From Elsinoe ampelina (lineage: Eukaryota): a stretch of DNA of 21,782 nucleotides. The notes under the pieces are model-generated. The model saw only the letters and a list, made by a program, of their open reading frames with translations, did no database searches and was not told the origin of the DNA. The stretch spans positions 1,443,147-1,464,928 of the forward strand of contig ML992505.1 of the NCBI GenBank assembly GCA_010093995.1, written 5' to 3'. Positions within the stretch are counted from its first letter, which is position 1. Each line of letters begins with the position of its first letter. Positions 1,600 to 21,644 of the stretch are shown here, one piece after another. Position numbers and translations under genes: made by a program.

Positions 1600-2197
1600 G
1601 GGGAGAGGGAATGTGGTCTTGCGCTGGAGAAATGGATGGGTGCGAGTGAGAGGGTGGGTGTGCTCTTGGGAGGATGGTTTCGGTGACAGGGCGCTAGCTA
1701 TCGCTGGTAGGAAGACGGTCTCGCGGGTGGTAGGATGTCATCGCTGGAAGAGTGGCATTGCTGATAGGACGACAGCGTTGTTGGTAGGATCAAGGCGGCT
1801 TGCATGCAATGGATTGACATGTTCGGAGAGACTAATTCAATTCAACGGCGCTATGACTACTACATTGCCCTTCCTTTGTATCTCGAGAGGCTTGAAAGGT
1901 ATAGCGAGAGGCGATGGGGTATTACTGGAGCTGCAAGGAGTGGTCTTGACAGGACTACGAGGAGGAGTCATAAAGAGGCTGCTCAGAGGAGCAAGATGAT
2001 CAGCAATGCATGGGTGACACGGTGGGAGAAGATCACGACTCAGCAGAGGAGAACAAATCGAGCAAGCAGTCCACACCAGCGCGGATGAAATCAGAGTGTC
2101 ATGTCATGGGTATCTTGCTGTCCCAAACGCCGGTGCCTTCCCTTCGCCTGTCCTCGTCCTGATACCCCACCGCCCCCCTCCCCTCCCCCTTCAACCT

Positions 2198-2993
2198 TCA
2201 CCTCCCCACCACCACGTCCATCTTCCTCCCCTTCATCCTCTGCCTCGCCTCCACCACATCCCTCGTCGCCAACTGCGACTCCCTGCACCCCGCCGCCTTC
2301 CCCTCCCTCGCCAGCTTCTCTCTAACCACCACCAGCAGCAACTCTCTTGCCACAATGGCCGACTCCTTGCTCTCCCTCGCGAGCCACGACAAGCCCTCCA
2401 CCAAGGTCGACGACCACTGGGACACATCCTCTTCCGGGATGATGCGGCATGCGTTGCACCCCAGCTCGGGCGCGCGGTGGGCGGCACAGACGTGCCATTT
2501 CTTGGGATGGAGCTCGGGCACCATGATCACCGATTTCCAGTCCATACCCCAGGCTTGTTCGATGTGGGCGAGGCTGGCGGCGATCCTGGGCTTGAGGGTG
2601 GGCGGACCGGAGGGGGCGGAGGGGGCGGAGGGGCTGTCGGTCATTACTACCAGGTGGTCAGCGTGATTTGATGAACTTGACGTGGATGTTGGATACCTTC
2701 GTCTTGTTGAGGTATTGGAGGCGGAGGTACTACCAGGTCTGTGAGTATGGTCTTGCGTGAGTCTAGCAGGTGAAAGGTCTTACGGTCGGCCAGCGGATTT
2801 GGTGGCATTGGGTAATCGGTCGGCTGATCTTCATCGTATGAATTCCCTGCCAGCAATGTCAGTCATTTGTCGTTGCGAGCTGTTCCTGACGAGTTGCTGG
2901 TAGTATTTTCGCCGTGGAACTACCAGGTCTGGCGTTTGGGATTGAGAACTCACAGTACAGGTTATTCATGTCTCGCTGGAAGGGGTGCGACAT
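2198..2993 (-). CDS. Orphan protein A, unknown family, paralogue of orphan B. Predicted exons 2993-2954, 2846-2784, 2729-2697, 2646-2198; 194 aa.
   Basis: Three phase-1 introns (GTGAGT..CTGAC..CAG, 107 nt; GTAAGA..CTCAC..CTGGTAG, 54 nt; GTATCC..CTGAC..CTGGTAG, 50 nt) join into one open frame: MSHPFQRDMNNLYWNSYDEDQPTDYPMPPNPLADLPPPPIPQQDEVMTDSP...HIEQAWGMDW...WSSTLVEGLSWLA...LATRDV. The C-terminal domain aligns to ORF 7432-7788. An alternative in-frame acceptor exists at 2739. Confidence 0.75.
2608..2633. repeat. Short 9-bp tandem repeat (CGGAGGGGG) x about 3, encoding PSA repeats in orphan A
   Basis: cggagggggcggagggggcggagggg read directly. Confidence 0.7.
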
Positions 2994-3168
2994 GGTGCAG
3001 GAGAAGATGCAATGGTCGATAATTGGTTGTTTGAAGGTGCGTGCTGGTAGTATCTTGCGACGAGTGACTTCGTGAATGTGGCCAGCGAAAAGGTGAGAGG
3101 TGAGGTCGAAAATGAGATTGAAAGAAATGCCAAAATATAAAGTGCAGAATCGCCTGAAGTACTACCAG
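2647..3168. repeat. Dispersed heptamer cluster 1 (CTACCAG/CTGGTAG, 6 exact copies)
   Basis: CTACCAG at 2647, 2730, 2920, 3162; CTGGTAG at 2897, 3044. All six extend to ACTACCAG/CTGGTAGT. Confidence 0.9.
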
Positions 3169-4087
3169 GCACCCATCGTCCCTACGCCCTCTATTGTCAA
3201 GCCGCCTCCAACTATTGTTACCACAGTGACAATACAGGGGAGCATGTGATAGCACGTGAGAGCCAGGAATCGCAGGAAAAAAAGTGCAAAAATGAATGGC
3301 ACATGTTCGGAATCGCACATCGACGTTTGTGGTGACAGAGAGAATAGTCTCGAATATGAGAGTAAACCCGTTGAGTGAGAGCACGGTGTCGGAGAAAGGA
3401 ACGCTTGAGCTACAGGGGCGTTCATCTCGTGGATTCATTTGGGAAACCAGCGGCAAACAATAAATATATACCTTTCCATCTGCTCTGTGAGCCCACCCGT
3501 GCGCTTGACAAGTCCTCATCACATTGCACACTTCGAAACGTCATATCATACTTCTGAGTCGTCGGTCGATTGACATGATCATGATCAACAAGGAAATATG
3601 GAGAGTCTCTAACCTTCAGCGATTCTGGAACAGAATTCGCCACAGATTGTGTCACAAGGCAATTGGGCTAGTTTCGTATTGTCACAATTGATTTCATGAA
3701 GCAAGCACTGTCGATAATCAGTCTATTGAACATGGATGGTATTGTGCACTAGTCAATCGAGGGTATGCATGCTCCGGCAGTGACCAGCCCACATGTCTCT
3801 CGAACGAGTGCAACAATCGGCACATGTCACATGAGTCGGAAGCTAGTCGTTTTCACTTCTCCAGGATCTGAAGCATGGCGATTTGAGAATGCCAGATGGG
3901 ATCTTGGTGATTCTGCCGGATCGTGATGCAACGAAAGGATGGAGAGTTTGGCAGACGTCTGGCCAAGCACAAACCCCAACTCTGACAGAGCCGCATGCAA
4001 ACGTGCTGACTCAGCTTTGAGGCTTTCAATAACCTTGAATATAATTCTAATGTCTCTACAATCACACATCGACAACACTATGTAATC

Positions 4088-5790: not shown

Positions 5791-6865
5791 GATGAGCAAT
5801 TATCCTGTAGACTTTACGATCGCGCTGCTTGCGAGAGCTGCTTATCTTGAGTTGTCAACAGTGACCTGAGACGTCATGGCATTGTGTGAGAGGTGTGGGG
5901 CGCACCAGAAGCGGGGGAGCGGCCTGGTGGAACTTTCAGCTTCGACTTCATCCTTCCTTCATTCTCGCCACAATAGTCAAATATGGATCACAGGCAATAT
6001 GAAGGACTGAATTTTCTGTGAGCGGACATGTATGGTGATATCGTGATAGTTTTGATGATTTTTGTGGTGCTTCGATGTGATTGTGGCGTGCTGTGATGTC
6101 TCGTGTCCGCAGCAGGTTTGTGCTCATCTTCTCTTTGAACGCAATGAAATGGTTACCATCTCCTTCAGAGACATGGTGATAGAGCATCGAATAGACGAAT
6201 GGAACTGACATGGCCACTACACTGCAGAGTGTCTGCGCCCACGCCCGCATGGGCTGTCGGGCGCATGATGCCAAGTGTCGTCACATGTCAGTGAAGGTAT
6301 ATATATTTTATTAATTTATCTGATCTCCAAGAGAGGCGCGAATAGGGCTATGGAGCCTGAAAGTGCGGGTGAATGGTCTAGTGGGAACCAGCAGCACCAA
6401 TTGTGCGTGTACGGCTGTACCACCAAGACCCCGGGGTATTCACTCGTAGCATTTCACTGCGGTCGCAGCCGAAGCAGTCTCAAGAAAGCACCACCCATAG
6501 AGGTACCGCAGACGAGATTGTCCAAGCCAACACCGCGTCGATTCGTGGAGATGAGATCATTGCGCGCGGATGATCGACTCGAAGCTGACTTGTCGGCACA
6601 TGCGCCTCTCTTTTTTTGTCCGGTTCGACTCACGGACTGTCCTTCTTTTTGGGCATGTCACTTCACATATTGTGGACAGGAGGGGTAAGTTGACATGTGA
6701 CAGCACGCGTGAACCCGTGAAGCAGGCTACCAGCCACTCGCATTTTTGGTGGTGCGCACGGCATATTGTGAGTTCGCACTTGCGAGATTCTCTTCACCTT
6801 CCTCTCAGCATACCGACCATCCTCGCCTCCTAGATTACTACCAGAATCAATCAAATACTACCAGG

Positions 6866-7788
6866 ATGCCGAATCCTGTCTACCAAGATGCGCGCAATGC
6901 GTTGCGTAAGATGCACTGCACCTGGAGAAGCCGCGATGTGAGATCTGATTTTTCACACAGTCAACGGTCTGGCCTCCGGGTCAAAGAGGAAGAGGGAGGA
7001 AGAGCCTCCGGCTGCTGGTAGTTACAACGGCTCTATTCCTACCAGGCGCGGCTGGTCTGACTAGTATAGCAGTATCTGAGGGAGAGGGAGAGGCCGGCGG
7101 CCCCCCTGCAGAAGAAGGTAATACACCATCACGTCTGCAGATATCCTACCACGATGCTGACGACCTGGTAGTTTCTACTGGTGAGGAAGAGGCTGGCGGG
7201 TCCGCCTCCACAGAACAAGGTATGGCACCACCAATTTCACATTGTCGATCAACCTACCAGAATGCTGACGACCTGGTAGTACCCGAGGCCGAGGGTGGCG
7301 CTGGCGCCCCCTCCAACGAGCCCGCAGACGACGGTATTGCTCACCCCTTCTCATAATCATCCTACCAGCATACTGACGGCCTGGTAGTTTCCGGCGCGCC
7401 AAGCTCGAAGAAGCAGCGCAAAGACAACCGCGTGGTCGCAATGGACCACCTCCGTACCAACTGGGGAGAAGACTGGGTCGAGAAGGTCATGGACGACGAG
7501 ATCCTTCCGTGGGTGGCGACCGGCCCGGAGGTACTTGCTGGTAGGACCAGCGAGGGCAAATCCTACCAGACGGGCATTCGTTTGCTGAGGAATCCAGAGG
7601 AGTGGTCGACCTCCCTGGTAGTTGAGATGGCTTGGCTGGCGAAGAAGACGCCTGGGGAGCAGGAGAAGGTCAAGGGGATGCTCAAGAAGCAGTTGGGTGG
7701 CAAGCTGGAGGCGGAGGGATTCAAGGGTGGTGCTGGGTTGGTTTTGCTGGCTCCCAGAGATGTCAAGGCGGTGGTTGCTATGCTGTAA
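6866..7788 (+). CDS. Orphan protein B, unknown family, paralogue of orphan A, probably nuclear. Predicted exons 6866-6905, 6961-7017, 7073(or 7070)-7117, 7172-7219, 7280-7333, 7388-7788; about 214 aa.
   Basis: Five phase-1 GT-AG introns of 52-60 nt, each with a CTGAY branch site, give one open frame: MPNPVYQDARNALLNGLASGSKRKREEEPPAA-VSEGEGEAGGPPAEE-VSTGEEEAGGSASTEQ-VPEAEGGAGAPSNEPADD-VSGAPSSKKQRKDNRVVAMDHLRTNWGEDW...WSTSLVVEMAWLA...LAPRDV. KRKR and KKQRK are NLS-like. Confidence 0.8.
7073..7387 (+). repeat. Three degenerate tandem exon+intron units of about 100-108 bp inside orphan B
   Basis: Units 7073-7171, 7172-7279 and 7280-7387 each comprise an acidic/Gly exon ending GAAG/CAAG/GACG, a GTA donor, and an intron tail cctacca(c/g)-xat(g/a)ctgacg(a/g)c-ctggtag. 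Confidence 0.85.
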
Positions 7789-8103
7789 TTTGTGGTAGTT
7801 CATGAGCGAGAAATACTACCAGAGAACATGCCGGCGGGCTGTCGATTGTTGAAGACTCTACATACCATCCTTGCTATGTGCAGTGATTACTACCAGGACA
7901 CGAGAACTTCATGACAAGATCCGGGTCATTGGCCATCTTTCTGGTAGTACCAGGCGGAAACATCCTACCAGGCAAGTGACATGGTCTAGCACCAGTGACA
8001 TGAGATGGCTCATGAAATTAAGAAGTGACGGAGACTTCTGGTAATAACAGACGTGGCAATCCTACTAGGCCAGCTTCGGAGGAAGGGCAAGAACATATGT
8101 GCA

Positions 8104-8960
8104 TTATGGACCAACTCGTTGTCCCATACCACGCATCTGTATACCGCTCCCCAACGTCGAATTCCTCTGCCCGGACACACTCGGCAGCACGCCATACCTC
8201 CCATAGGTCTTCTGATCCACCGAAACATAATGTGGCAGCCTTCCCAGTAAATTCAGCTTACCCTCCACCCACCTCAGTATCCTCTCCGACGGGACCAAGA
8301 ACTTGATATACCCAAGACCCCAAAGATATCCAATCAGCAAGCCGCAAACATGCCCAGTAAAGCTCGAAGCCGGTATCAGTGCCGATATCACCAGACATAC
8401 AGCGCAGGGATACGTCCAAGTCGGTATCTTCACACCTCCAATCTCGAAATTCGGATTCGCCTTCCAAGTCTTGATGGCCTCGCTCGCCATGAGCAGGAAT
8501 ATCCAGATGCTCGCACCTTGTACGCCGATATTGGAATGGAAGATGAACTTTTCTATCAACACATATAGACCACCGGGGAGAGTCGAGAAAGGACCGGTGA
8601 AGAGGGCGAGGGTGATGAGGGTGCCGAACTCTGCTTCGAAGCGTTCGAGGAGCGGGATCAGGGCGAGGATGTTGAGGAAGAAGTGGATGAAGCCGAGGTG
8701 GAGGAAGGGGTAGGTGTTGATTCTATGCACTGTGATGTGTTAGACCAAGTCGCCGAGCAGTCTTCGGGAGCCATACTGCTAGTCAAAGCCACCTCATTCG
8801 GTATTAATGCTGCCCATTTCGGGAACCACGGAAGTGTGAGACTGGCGATGAAGAATCCAACAGTGACCAGGCCGAGCAGTCGTGTGCATAGCGGCAGTCG
8901 TACTATATAAGACCGGGCTCGCTTCGCATCGCATTGGAAGAATGGCGACGTCGACGCCAT
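8104..8960 (-). CDS. RBD2: Rhomboid-type intramembrane serine protease 2. Exons 8960-8777, 8729-8104; 269 aa.
   Basis: RLPLCTR...; 47-nt intron GTATGG..CTAAC..CAG; MHRINTYPFLHLGFIHFFLN, ERFEAEFGT, catalytic GAS and GH(V)CG; C-terminal LPHYVSVDQKTYGRYGVLP typical of Pezizomycotina Rbd2. Confidence 0.92.
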
Positions 8961-15788: not shown

Positions 15789-17675
15789 TTTGATAGATGC
15801 GTCAAGCTTGTAATGATCTGGGAGGGCAAGTGAAGGATGAACGGGATGAAGACCTACGAACTTGGTTCTCCTCCTCGGTTTACTTATACCTTGCCTGCTG
15901 TCGACATGTGTTCCGACCGTTTTGTGCTCAAATGATGCTGACTCTGATGCAGGACCATGCTCATGCTGGAGCGGAATGCCAAGTCAAGAGCACATCAACG
16001 ATTGGTCGTTGAAAAGGAGGCGTCGAGCGGAGGCGTTGCCAAGACGCCGGGGTGAACAGGTTCATGGACCCTCGACTGGTTTTGTGGCGCTGCGCAGGGT
16101 AAGGGATACGCACGTAAGAATTTGTTTTTAAGTCGAACCAGGTCAAGACGCTCCCGATTTGGCTCTCGGTGTAACCACTCGTTACACATATCCTATCAGA
16201 GGTCTTCACTGCTGTCATGGGCATTCCAGGTCTGGGCTAGTGGAACGCCATGTGCTCAATTGCTGGGACGATAGGGTCCATCCTTCTGGTCGGACAATTG
16301 TCTGTCGACAGCCCTGCGAAACGTCTGCTTTTCTCGTGGCGTCCTATTCGCTACACATGTCCCAACAGAAGCAGACTACCGTATGTGGCAGCACAAAAAT
16401 AGTCTAGCCTGAGTGCGAATTGTTGTTTATAGACAAAACGGTGCGATTAGAGAAACACCGGTATGATTGTGATCGGGCGCTTGATTCATCTGACCTGTTC
16501 AGACCAGGTAGAGTGGCGGTGTCTGGGCAAGACCATGGTCTATCCTATTCAAGCACGCGACCATATTCGGGCAATGCTGATGTGGTCCAGCCTGGACGAG
16601 CTAGGGTGCTGCGACCTGGATCGCGCATCTTCCTCGAATAAGTCCATTGGCGAAAGCCACCGCGAGTCAGTGAATCAGTGATACTCAGCAAGTACCGTGC
16701 GTCGGCAAAACACTGTTCAGCAGATCCGACATCCGACGAACAGGCAGTGCAACCTGCAGAAAGTTGGCGGTCCATGTGTCTACAAGCGACCGGGCACCAT
16801 GGATGGAAGTCACAAGCTGGGTAATAGACTGTCACCCGCACTTTTGTCTGTGCTCGGGTCATGGCAACGTGGCACGTGAGACATCAGCGACGAGCATAGA
16901 ATCCAGCTACCGCCTATGACTGTCAGCATTCACGTGGGGCCCGTCGTAAGCGAATGCTTACAAAATCGTTAATTCGATGTTTTCACAGTTGCTGACTTCC
17001 TGGAAACCGTGGGAAGCAGAGCTGGGCCGTGATCGTCTTGACATAGCGTTCGTGCGACTCTGTACTCTTCAGATGCATCACATCCAACGCGTATGGTCTG
17101 CAACCAACATACGTCCGCGCAGATCTTCTGCCTTTGCTTCAACTCTAGCATGCACTTTCATGGCAAACCTCAGGCAGCCATTACCTCCGCTGCCGAGAGT
17201 TCCGCAGCCCGTTGAGAGCGAGACGGAAAGGATGACGAATTCTTGTAGTGACCCCAAAGCCACTTGTGGAACGTATCTCCCTCTAGATGCATTGGGCGTG
17301 ATGAAGGCTGTACAACTAGCCGAGTGTTGCAACGTACGCCCTATGGGCATGTTTGAGAGGGCGGATGCGCGATTGGATAAGTAGAGCATCAACCGCTCGC
17401 GGTGTGATAGCCATCGCTGGTAGTAGTATGCGTCAATTGGTCGAGATCATGGTCGCGAAGAAGTAAAGTGTGACGAAGAAATGTATGGACATTGACTCAC
17501 CTTGCCATAGCTTGCTACGTTCATGACAAGTCATTCGTGACACCCTCATGCGGTGATACACGTAGAGGGACTTACACGACCGCGTCTTTCAGATCATACC
17601 ATCGATACCTCTTGACACGTCAGGATGCAGTGACTACCAATAGCTGAGCCCGACGAAATTATAAAGAGACGTTCT

Positions 17676-21079: not shown

Positions 21080-21644
21080 GCTTGCTGAATAGTAAATCTT
21101 TGGACTGCCAGTCGTAGAAGATGTGAAAGTGATGAGTGGTGGTGAGGTTGAGGGCGTAGATTTTGTGTGGTGTCGACTGGTCGTTCTTTCCACATCTGAA
21201 TGCACGGGATGCAATTGTTACCGCGTGAGTGTGATGCTTGCTGAAAGTGAAATGGACAATCGTCACGTGTGAGACAGATGCCAATCGGTGATGTGAATAC
21301 TAGTGCTTGACAATCGGCAAACATGTGATACTTGTCAAGAAGGAGCTGGCCATCGAATGTCACTGGAAAGCGGGCATGGCAACACCACGCAAATAGACCG
21401 CCACATCCGCTGGAGTCATCGCGATGAGTAGGATGTGGTGGTGAGTAAGTCATTGGATTGTAGTCGAAGTCCGGTAGTAGAAGGGGTGGGCCAAACCTTA
21501 ATTTCGACATCACTTGTGTTGTAATGGAAGGCTGGTACAGCTTCTCTGGTACTGAAGAACTGGTACTGATGAGTCAGCGCACGCACAGTAGATAAATCGG
21601 TTATTGTAACTCTCTGAATAAAACACACGTCTCTCGATCCGATT

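Follow-up and report, generated by a model that had tools for sequence, protein, structure and literature searches.

The heptamer CTACCAG/CTGGTAG was found to be the commonest 7-mer of the analyzed window, a 21,782-nt stretch of Elsinoe ampelina DNA, and its copies were gathered in three patches at two paralogous orphan genes, A and B. We proposed, with a probability of about 0.4, that the word forms a selected cluster of candidate binding sites for a sequence-specific DNA-binding factor controlling both paralogs, and that some of the sites are also used by the spliceosome.

Results

Gene Models and Proteins of Orphans A and B

The five introns of orphan B were 55, 55, 54, 60 and 54 nt long, every one in phase 1, and the stop codon was located at 7786-7788 (Table 1). 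The spliced translation was open and collinear with P0005 of Elsinoe batatas (125 identical residues in 216 columns), a related annotated protein that retains all the tandem units described below. The three introns of orphan A (107, 54 and 50 nt) were likewise all in phase 1. Its protein was identical to E. batatas P0009 in 179 of 194 residues, and its last exon was equal to P0004, named by its source as from Elsinoe ampelina. The two proteins were paralogous (BLASTP E = 1e-11, 29% identity) and were the sole members, within the window, of a family restricted to Elsinoe, a genus of plant-pathogenic fungi. Other members are P0005, P0007 and P0009 of E. batatas and P0006 and P0008 of E. fawcettii.

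Neither A nor B matched Pfam, and a word-index protein search with the last exon of orphan B as the query gave no match. The best score of an Atlas search with the orphan proteins was 0.81, which was under the useful level, and Foldseek returned no match in the PDB at E ≤ 0.001. The confidently modeled domain (pLDDT 85) had no known fold. In a wide VIA-align search the best Z, 4.8, was obtained for the lid domains of AAA+ ATPases, and ParB/SopB/VirB-type DNA-binding domains reached Z of 3.5-4.2 at an rmsd of 4.8-5.5, both results being in the chance range for helical models. A metagenome scan with A as the single-protein query produced 596 pattern matches and 0 relatives. Basic stretches, KRKR and KKQRK, were noticed by eye in the B protein. 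A protein-level repeat was ruled out as the source of the word, since the copies occupied all three frames.

Table 1. Positions of the orphan genes, the word copies and the structures built from them.
Feature	Position	Strand	Description
Orphan A	2198..2993	-	Four exons, 194 aa; paralog of orphan B
Orphan A exons	2993-2954, 2846-2784, 2729-2697, 2646-2198		
Orphan B	6866..7788	+	Six exons, 214 aa
Orphan B exons	6866-6905, 6961-7017, 7073-7117, 7172-7219, 7280-7333, 7388-7788		
Small patch	1704..1789	-	Four direct TCCTACCAN copies, 3' flank of orphan A
Word cluster A	2647..3168	.	Six exact copies
Word cluster B	6727..8068	.	17 exact CTACCAG/CTGGTAG copies and five one-off variants
CTACCAG, cluster B	6838, 6858, 7039, 7254, 7362, 7563, 7816, 7890, 7965	+	
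CTACCAG, cluster B	7015, 7165, 7273, 7381, 7538, 7615, 7941	-	
One-off variants, cluster B	7146, 7792, 7947, 8038, 8062		Starts of the cores
Tandem triplication	7118..7387	+	108-bp exon+intron unit; introns 3-5 with exons 4-5
Inverted pair	2897..2926	-	Within intron 1 of A; fold z = -1.89
Inverted pair	7015..7045	+	CTGGTAGTT-N-TCCTACCAG; left arm serves as B intron 2 donor (CTG/GTAGTT)
Inverted pair	7538..7569	+	Inside the last coding exon; predicted 13-bp RNA hairpin
Inverted pair	7792..7822	+	Just past the stop codon; left arm variant GTGGTAG; fold z = -2.82
Inverted pair	7941..7971	+	3' flank of B; includes the palindrome CTGGTAGTACCAG (7941-7953)
Inverted pair, degenerate	8038..8068	+	CTGGTAA ... 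CTACTAG; within the high-depth rhomboid transcript stretch

Enrichment and Extent of the Word

With both strands counted, the whole window contained 29 exact copies of CTACCAG, when dinucleotide-preserving shuffles (n = 100) gave a mean of 2.08, a standard deviation of 1.32 and a maximum of 6. A preliminary description of this DNA had reported 16 copies between 6838 and 7971, nine in one orientation and seven in the other, and a listing of exact copies returned the same sites on the same strands. Window-trained Markov models of orders 0 to 4 predicted 0.146, 0.102, 0.128, 0.253 and 0.377 copies, respectively, in these 1134 bp, so that the enrichment was 42- to 156-fold. The order-0 values (0.146 copies, 109-fold) agreed with the 0.14 copies and roughly 100-fold enrichment estimated earlier, and the comparison with a Markov background, proposed there as a check, gave enrichment at all five orders. 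When the four copies added by a tandem triplication were dropped, 12 remained in 918 bp (Poisson P of 1e-15 to 2e-22). The six copies of cluster A were also enriched (P of 3e-8 to 1e-11). The other 18,975 bp of the window held five copies against 1.7-6.3 expected, and one exact 9-mer was found there.

A frequency matrix of 24 exact copies revealed that the true unit was longer than the heptamer and read T[A/C]CTACCAG[not T]. The core was intact (7/7) in these 24 copies, and the informative flanking positions were -2 (T in 17 of 24), -1 (A in 16, C in 7) and +1 (no T), with at most 0.45 bit at positions further out.

Location of the Copies

Of the 16 copies between 6838 and 7971, two preceded the ATG (6866), four followed the stop codon and three were inside the last exon, the other seven being in or at introns. 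This assignment to gene parts had been made in the preliminary description and was upheld by the gene model checked against the related Elsinoe protein; the palindrome CTGGTA-G-TACCAG reported in the 3' flank was also found. The earlier description had missed the copy at 6727, and the copy at 1704, which it regarded as scattered, turned out to belong to a third patch of four degenerate copies, one exact and three with a one-base difference.

Both orientations were present at orphan A as well. Here intron 3 had the copy at 2647 as its acceptor and intron 2 the one at 2730, those at 2897 and 2920 formed an inverted pair in intron 1, and those at 3044 and 3162 lay upstream of the ATG. The introns and flanks of the other genes in the window contained no copy, and the word was the dominant noncoding element common to the two orphans. 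A second common element, CATGTGAYAGCACG, was marginal.

Use of the Word at Splice Junctions

Six copies over both genes were splice junctions under the gene models, five of them acceptors (CTGGTAG/T, the slash marking the junction) and one a donor (CTG/GTAGTT), four of these being among the 16 copies of 6838-7971. Five of the eight introns of A and B thus ended in the word and one began with it. The homologous last introns of the two genes had the acceptor module GCTGAC-NAC-CTGGTAG in common. Two introns of the neighboring dehydrogenase gene, placed by joints in run X5, ended in ...CCCCTCAG and ...ACACACCAG and lacked the word. A species-wide acceptor consensus was ruled out, as other introns ended in a C-rich CAG. 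The word contains both GT and AG, and copies just 3' of a branch site were therefore used as acceptors. Since these copies are splice junctions, part of the word pattern is certainly read as RNA.

Tandem Triplication and Independent Copies

The only head-to-tail units of constant period were the three 108-bp units of orphan B, with which the repeat families D2-D4, spaced 108 nt, coincide in period; the copies were otherwise unexplained by such units. The introns of the triplication ended in (C)CTACCA(G/C)-N11, with CTGAC as the branch site, followed by CTGGTAG/T. Two copies were multiplied in this way, which added four of the 16. Downstream flanks identical at 16-19 of 20 positions were found only among the triplication copies, whereas the flanks of 31 copies were at background (4.88 of 18 positions alike where the null was 4.54; 5.27 of 20 where it was 5.02). 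Departures from background were confined to the tandem triple, the acceptor module that A intron 3 has in common with B introns 3-4 and, at the threshold, the isolated pairs 7941/8038 (upstream) and 1727/7015 (downstream). Tandem Repeats Finder detected no array spanning the clusters and only two tiny G/A-rich runs in 6838-7971.

Outside the triplication only the 9-10 nt word was common to the copies and their flanks were random-like, so the copies were not those of a decayed minisatellite, the origin that the preliminary description had named as speaking against its reading. A conserved core amid unconserved flanks argues for selection on the word itself. The earlier claim that neither splicing nor tandem duplication alone suffices also held, since four copies were junctions, four came from the triplication and the rest shared the word only.

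Spacing, Inverted Pairs and Predicted Folds

The spacing, previously described as irregular, showed a preference for neighbor gaps of 18-25 nt, seven of which were observed against 1.6 simulated with duplicates collapsed (P = 0.00025). These were inverted pairs and three direct pairs (20, 23 and 20 nt). Nine neighboring inverted pairs with loops of 11-18 nt were found, and inspection by eye, with no formal test, revealed no complementarity beyond the word. Their interiors were not conserved, and no target-site duplications were visible by eye beside the inverted units, six of which were 30-32 nt long with word arms and GT...AG ends.

The minimum-energy fold paired the arms in six of the eight folded segments that held both. 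Two of the 11 folded segments reached z ≤ -2.8 (-4.23 and -2.82), the stronger being 7530-7575 at -21 kcal/mol, and nine had z above -2. In the predicted hairpins of B introns 4 and 5 the loop held the branch site and the stem the acceptor. Neither cluster matched Rfam, and the two weak hits obtained in all (E 0.011 and 0.98) were to lncRNA families and far under the gathering scores.

Read Coverage and Comparison with a Relative

The read evidence consisted of contigs (runs X3, X4 and X5), the uncovered parts of A and B being uninformative. A low-depth contig of X3, a probable RNA run, spanned 7621-7793 of orphan B. Record 7 of the same run covered 7856-8400 at a depth of 298 and represented the transcript of a convergent rhomboid gene; six word copies lay in this stretch, at about 70 times the depth of orphan B. 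Low-depth X3 contigs had six ends within the clusters, of which five were at most 7 nt from a copy (P = 0.013, post hoc). No splice isoforms were observed, the RNA-like data being low-depth contigs only. In the contigs of X4, a relative about 95% identical, the copies 7538 and 7563 were the only ones within a scorable contig interior, and their arms were unchanged when the 14-nt loop between them carried four changes (Fisher P = 0.014, post hoc).

Discussion

The orientation-independent copies in the promoter, introns, coding exon and 3' flank are best explained, as a single cause, by a reader acting at the DNA level. The preliminary description had interpreted the word as such a signal, which agrees with this, although the six splice-junction copies are certainly read as RNA, and a DNA reading therefore requires dual use of the word. 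It is proposed that T[A/C]CTACCAG is a selected cis-element recognized on double-stranded DNA by a putative sequence-specific factor, whose binding is probably cooperative at sites spaced by about two turns of the helix. Through dense arrays over the promoter, introns and 3' flank of both genes, A and B, anciently diverged paralogs of the Elsinoe-specific orphan family, would come under common control. The positions of the copies may turn over as their number remains high; copies 3' of branch sites would have been taken as acceptors in five introns and one as a donor, and the 108-bp triplication would have multiplied two copies later. We infer protein binding and the DNA-level reading from the sequence pattern, and the direction of regulation from the low read depth of A and B beside highly covered neighbors, which is a hint of repression or gating.

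The presence of clusters at both paralogs, with the rest of the window near expectation, indicates specificity for the family and supports a DNA-binding factor, as do, weakly, the unchanged arms and changed loop in X4. Inverted pairs lacking complementarity beyond the word point to a reader of sequence rather than of structure. About 22 sites in 1.3 kb of gene body and 3' flank are, however, unusually dense for a fungal transcription factor. The hairpin-capable inverted pairs also count against a DNA reading, as their arrangement fits RNA hairpins too, and the contig ends near copies in X3 point to a transcript-level event. A full-text literature search outside subscription journals and motif databases found no named motif matching the word or its extensions and only primers or unrelated uses. 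A possible likeness of the word to the "GGTAG" sites of plant Myb factors, to the Reb1 site of yeast or to the U1 snRNA 5' end was considered and set aside. No pointer to a recombination or base-modification mark was found in this analysis.

The splice junctions and hairpins could be accounted for at the RNA level, the main alternative, which we regard as possible but rather unlikely. CUGGUAG, which is donor- and acceptor-like, would pair with its complement CUACCAG in the pre-mRNA, so that splice sites would be masked or presented and branch sites looped, and the splicing of the short phase-1 introns, the inclusion of the tandem mini-exons or transcript stability would be set thereby. Consistent with this are the word-ended introns of A and B beside the different dehydrogenase introns, the nine inverted pairs with arms paired in most folds, the two stable segments, and the looped branch sites with stem-borne acceptors. 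The common phase and the 54, 60 and 54 nt of three introns mean that skipping or retention would keep the frame; the acceptor module was kept in the last introns of A and B despite 29% protein identity; and the X4 substitutions and the X3 contig ends fit pairing as well. A structure, however, needs complementarity rather than one word in every stem, and most hairpins were weak. Moreover, three close pairs are direct, a dozen copies, including both acceptors of A, have no nearby partner, six lie in the rhomboid transcript stretch, and the low-depth contigs contained no splice isoform.

An origin of functionless copies as a neutral by-product of short-unit duplications, a decayed minisatellite or template switching is highly unlikely and was largely refuted in this analysis. 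The 108-bp triplication is a real instance of such copying, and four 38-nt units (7013, 7790, 7939 and 8036) were 63-74% alike, shared arms included. Neutral decay would, however, erode core and flanks alike, when only the flanks were at background; no cluster-spanning array was detected, and the same word filled paralogous loci at 29% protein identity. Transposon excision footprints were also set aside, as they are not known to give a matching end and target pattern. There is only a very slight chance that the copies are remnants of a mobile or intron-spreading element of about 31 nt with inverted ends CTGGTAGT...ACTACCAG, foldback, MITE-like or introner-like, whose ends on either strand are donor-like on the left and acceptor-like on the right. 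The six GT...AG units, one of which supplies the donor of B intron 2, and the placement of the host in Dothideomycetes, the class for which introner-like elements are described in PMC4457414, agree with this. Against it, no unit is long enough to be spliced on its own or has a branch site, the introns and flanks of the other genes in the window are free of copies, and near-identical whole introns over unrelated genes were not seen, intron likeness being confined to the tandem triple. Inverted arms are present as in MITE or foldback elements, but the spacers are unconserved and flanking duplications were not visible by eye.

The word may instead be the recognition site of the family's own proteins A and B, which would then form a self-marking, self-regulating gene family, and this is improbable. 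Nuclear entry of the proteins, suggested by the basic stretches of B, would be followed by binding to the arrays on their own and each other's genes, and the modeled domain would be a new DNA- or RNA-binding fold. Such binding would explain why the word is restricted to two family members in the window.

The proposed binding-site array resembles homotypic clusters of transcription factor sites in its short fixed core, degenerate flanks, strong local over-representation and both orientations, as well as in the positions turned over between paralogs and the preferred neighbor spacing. It differs from the usual clusters in having about one site per 60 bp over the whole transcription unit and 3' flank, coding exon included, and in the six sites doubling as splice junctions. 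In the DSR hexamer clusters of fission-yeast meiotic mRNAs, bound by Mmi1, a short word likewise recurs many times in the introns, UTRs and coding sequence of a small set of co-regulated genes. These clusters are read in RNA and are strand-specific, whereas the orientations here were balanced at B and both occurred at A, rather than the sense one only. In insect Dscam, RNA pairing between a docking site and selector sequences chooses among tandem exons. The tandem exons of orphan B are likewise similar in length and share a phase, and the complement of the upstream-donor word stands ahead of each (donor word at 7015; complements at 7037, 7144, 7252 and 7360). Unlike in Dscam, all units are retained in P0005, and further copies of the word are present in the promoter and 3' flank as well as in a paralog without tandem exons. 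Bacterial REP/BIME palindromes are likewise clustered units of about 31-38 nt in either orientation, with loops that vary between conserved inverted arms. The units found here, however, occur in a eukaryotic host and at one gene family in the window, with no evident cognate transposase, and many copies are single arms. The introner-like elements of Dothideomycetes (PMC4457414) are whole introns, nearly identical, that occur in unrelated genes; the main text of that paper mentions neither "Elsinoe" nor "Myriangiales". Both cases concern this fungal class and short introns that multiplied; here, however, the introns multiplied through the 108-bp triplication, the shared sequence is no more than the 9-10 nt word, and introns hold the minority of the copies.

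The locus displays a putative regulatory word used as both splice acceptor and donor, intron gain through tandem duplication of an exon+intron unit, and a high copy number in both paralogs at differing positions, with proteins of 29% identity. If the word acts by RNA pairing, the locus would be an example, rare among fungi, of tandem exons surrounded by a pairing code. If it is a binding site instead, the regulation of a lineage-restricted gene family could be approached directly in a grapevine pathogen, as the word would serve as a ready probe for isolating the factor and could be used to search the whole genome for co-regulated genes.

Word Enrichment and the Extended Unit

In the 21,782 bases of the window, 29 copies of one heptamer (the word: CTACCAG or, as its complement, CTGGTAG) were counted, compared with 2.08 ± 1.32 copies (maximum 6) in 100 dinucleotide-preserving shuffles of the window. 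It was the most frequent 7-mer of the entire window, above every low-complexity word. The preliminary description had listed 16 copies at 6838-7971 and an enrichment of about 100-fold. All 16 were recovered at their positions (9 on the + strand, 7 on the − strand), and Markov models of orders 0-4 predicted 0.10-0.38 copies, so that the claimed enrichment was a fair one (109-fold at order 0, 42- to 156-fold across orders). The copy at 6727 had been overlooked, and the one at 1704, described as scattered, belonged to a small patch 3' of orphan A. Outside the three patches, 5 heptamers were found in 18,975 bp where 1.7-6.3 were expected, which was not significant, and only one exact 9-mer, at 17417.

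The oriented flanks of 24 exact cluster copies gave the consensus T[A/C]CTACCAG followed by any base except T, and every outer position carried 0.45 bit or less. A scan for the 9-mer W-M-CTACCAG that tolerated one mismatch gave 46 sites where 11.4 ± 3.3 were expected; the three patches held 31 of them. Over all 465 pairs of 31 copies, 4.88 of 18 upstream bases (null 4.54) and 5.27 of 20 downstream bases (null 5.02) were shared; the pairs above the 99.9th percentile came from the tandem triple, the A-intron-3 module and two isolated threshold pairs. Since the core was kept at 7/7 bases while the flanks were mutually random, the data suggest that the word is under selection or subject to a process specific to it. 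CTGGTAC, which differs from the word by one letter, stood in three copies close to the window's right end.

Neighbouring copies tended to start 18-25 nt apart: cluster B had 9 such gaps where simulation gave 2.0, and 7 against 1.6 (P = 0.00025) once the tandem copies were collapsed. Nine neighbours at this spacing were inverted; three of these pairs, in reverse order, were the tandem introns. In RNA folding the arms were paired in 6 of the 8 segments containing both arms, and only 2 of 11 folded segments were clearly better than shuffles. As judged by eye, complementarity past the word was no commoner than its flank preferences predict.

Coordinates of the features in the window
Feature	Position	Strand	Remark
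Orphan A	2198-2993	−	4 exons, 194 aa
Orphan B	6866-7788	+	6 exons, 214 aa
Cluster A	2647-3168		
Cluster B	6727-8068		
Small patch	1704-1789		four direct, partly degenerate copies
Inverted pairs CTGGTAGT-N15-18-WMCTACCAG	2897, 7015, 7538, 7792 (variant), 7941, 8038 (variant)		
Direct close neighbours	6838/6858, 1704/1727, 1761/1781		
Isolated threshold flank pairs	7941/8038; 1727/7015		upstream flank; downstream flank
Folded segment	7530-7575		-21 kcal/mol, z = -4.23
Folded segment	7785-7828		z = -2.82
108-bp tandem repeat, 3 units	7118-7387		B introns 3-5 with exons 4-5
Upstream element CATGTGAYAGCACG	3241-3254, 6694-6707	+	13/14 identical
Weaker copy of CATGTGAYAGCACG	7983-7996		
Low-complexity tandem runs	1235-1557, 2608-2633		GGAGGGG-type, periods 9-23
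CTGGTAC copies	21532-21565		14 nt spacing (ggCTGGTACagcttctCTGGTACtgaagaaCTGGTACtga)
X3 contig ends near copies	2653, 3037, 3173, 7621, 7793		
X4 contig spans	7359-7648, 7694-7848		
84-nt join	2173-2256		

The Orphan Family and Its Surroundings

A and B were paralogous (BLASTP E = 1e-11, 29% identity). A profile of both, searched against 1.84 billion representative proteins, retrieved five proteins at E <= 0.001, all labelled hypothetical proteins of Elsinoe species by their sources; the family was found only in Elsinoe among these representatives and had no match in Pfam. P0004 of Elsinoe ampelina equals the last exon of A save for the spliced C-terminal end, in E. batatas A corresponds to P0009 and B to P0005, and P0006-P0008 are remoter members from E. 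fawcettii and E. batatas. A was 92% identical to its counterpart (179 of 194 residues), and B just 58% to its nearest relative (125 of 216 columns aligned with P0005). A six-frame profile search found A and B to be the sole family members in the window, hence both members and no other gene there carried a word cluster. The neighbouring genes were ordinary, coding for Gaa1, a rhomboid, a short-chain dehydrogenase and a zf-HIT protein.

The C-terminal domain of B was modeled confidently by AlphaFold (pLDDT 85, pTM 0.74) as helices with a beta hairpin. Foldseek returned no match to the model at E <= 0.001 and the top VIA-align Z was 4.8; the predicted domain does not convincingly resemble any solved fold.

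A second element, CATGTGAYAGCACG, was common to the upstream regions of both paralogs and lay on the same strand despite their opposite directions. The chance expectation for the pair was ~0.03 over two 300-bp regions by a rough hand estimate; it is a possible promoter element of the E-box-like kind. Purine-/pyrimidine-rich runs flanked A, one of them encoding the Ser/Ala/Pro repeat that opens its last exon.

Splice Junctions and the Tandem Triplication

The gene models were guided by related proteins and checked by script; all 8 introns of A and B were of phase 1. Six copies of the word served as splice junctions, since five introns (the second and third of A; the third, fourth and fifth of B) had the acceptor CTGGTAG|T(A/T), and B intron 2 had the donor CTG|GTAGTT. 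The two exonic bases 3' of each such acceptor are part of the 9-mer. The word was not a general acceptor of the species, because two introns of the dehydrogenase gene, placed by joints in sequencing run X5, had C-rich ...CAG ends without it. A and B agreed in the position and phase of their last introns, which had GCTGAC-NAC-CTGGTAG in common, a striking conservation at only 29% protein identity. B intron 1 had no copy; the homologous A intron 1 had a pair.

Each unit of the tandem repeat in B comprised a short phase-1 exon and a 54-60 nt intron, and carried the acceptor CTGGTAG besides an inner CTACCA(G/C). The valine-initiated units of P0005 equal those of B in number. The repeat is a clear instance of intron gain through tandem duplication of exon plus intron. 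As two of the three introns were open in frame, their retention would merely extend an acidic, glycine-rich linker. The triplication contributed 4 additional exact copies, beyond which duplication accounts for nothing.

Read Coverage

Run X3 was probably RNA by the guess of the tool; its cover varied greatly, from 0 to 298, with adapter sequence at fragment ends. Its depth was 4-5 over A and B against ~290 over the neighbours. Within the clusters 5 of 6 contig ends lay within 7 nt of a copy (31% of positions qualify; P = 0.013, post hoc). Transcripts may start, stop or be cleaved at the word, or the ends may be chance breaks at low cover. One piece across the last exon of A stopped precisely at 2653, where the acceptor word begins, which fits the P0004 annotation, marked partial and beginning at the next ATG. 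At 7856-8400 the depth reached 298, ~70 times that of B, and six copies lay at 7888-8068. The convergent rhomboid gene (CDS from ~8104, − strand) probably has its 3' UTR here, and therefore the B and rhomboid transcripts may overlap tail to tail.

Contigs of run X4, from a ~95% identical relative, held two copies (7538 and 7563) in their scorable interior, the other four in the span being too close to contig ends. Both were unchanged and the intervening 14 nt had 4 changes (Fisher P = 0.014 for arms versus loop, post hoc). As a whole, the read evidence on the word copies was weak.

Near the 3' end of A an X3 contig omitted 84 nt with non-canonical ends (GT..GG at best). P0004 follows this join and P0009 reads through; the skip may reflect a non-canonical intron, a variant with a deletion, or an artefact, the sequence there being G-rich.

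Interpretation

The word feature is real and highly non-random. It is partly due to one tandem triplication and to splice-site use, and the rest is unexplained by known repeat classes. An origin of all copies from one decayed minisatellite, considered in the preliminary description, disagreed with the near-null flanks and with Tandem Repeats Finder, which gave no array across the clusters. For a MITE, for a strand-specific RNA word cluster and for introner-like elements of Dothideomycetes (PMC4457414), a defining feature was likewise looked for and was absent. Among known kinds, homotypic clusters of transcription-factor sites come nearest, and the present case differs from them in that the density extends over the whole transcription unit and the copies double as splice signals. 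No published motif matching the word was found in a search limited to openly accessible full-text articles.

The pattern calls for a reader of a specific 9-10 nt word in either orientation, at two loci that are otherwise little alike. We proposed, as the simplest reading and at a probability of roughly 0.4, that the clusters are candidate sites of a sequence-specific DNA-binding factor. It is favoured because the copies would work in either orientation, the core is fixed, the clusters are limited to family members, copy positions differ between the paralogs, and the two-turn spacing applies to direct and inverted pairs alike. The splice-site overlap would then follow from the letters of the word: as the spliceosome uses the first AG 3' of the branch site, a CTGGTAG retained towards the 3' end of an intron would become its acceptor.

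The main rival, pairing of the word with its complement within the pre-mRNA, would account for hairpins whose loops enclose branch sites and whose stems contain acceptors, for a B intron 2 donor complementary to the words before every tandem exon, for introns that preserve frame, for arms kept and a loop varied in the relative, and for the X3 contig ends. However, identical letters in every stem, direct pairs and single copies, and copies inside the transcript of the neighbour are poorly accounted for, and pairing was judged rather unlikely. Mechanisms other than those considered take a somewhat smaller share of the probability. Two further readings were a bad fit to the data: neutral duplication, held improbable, and a very small element of mobile or introner type, held very improbable.
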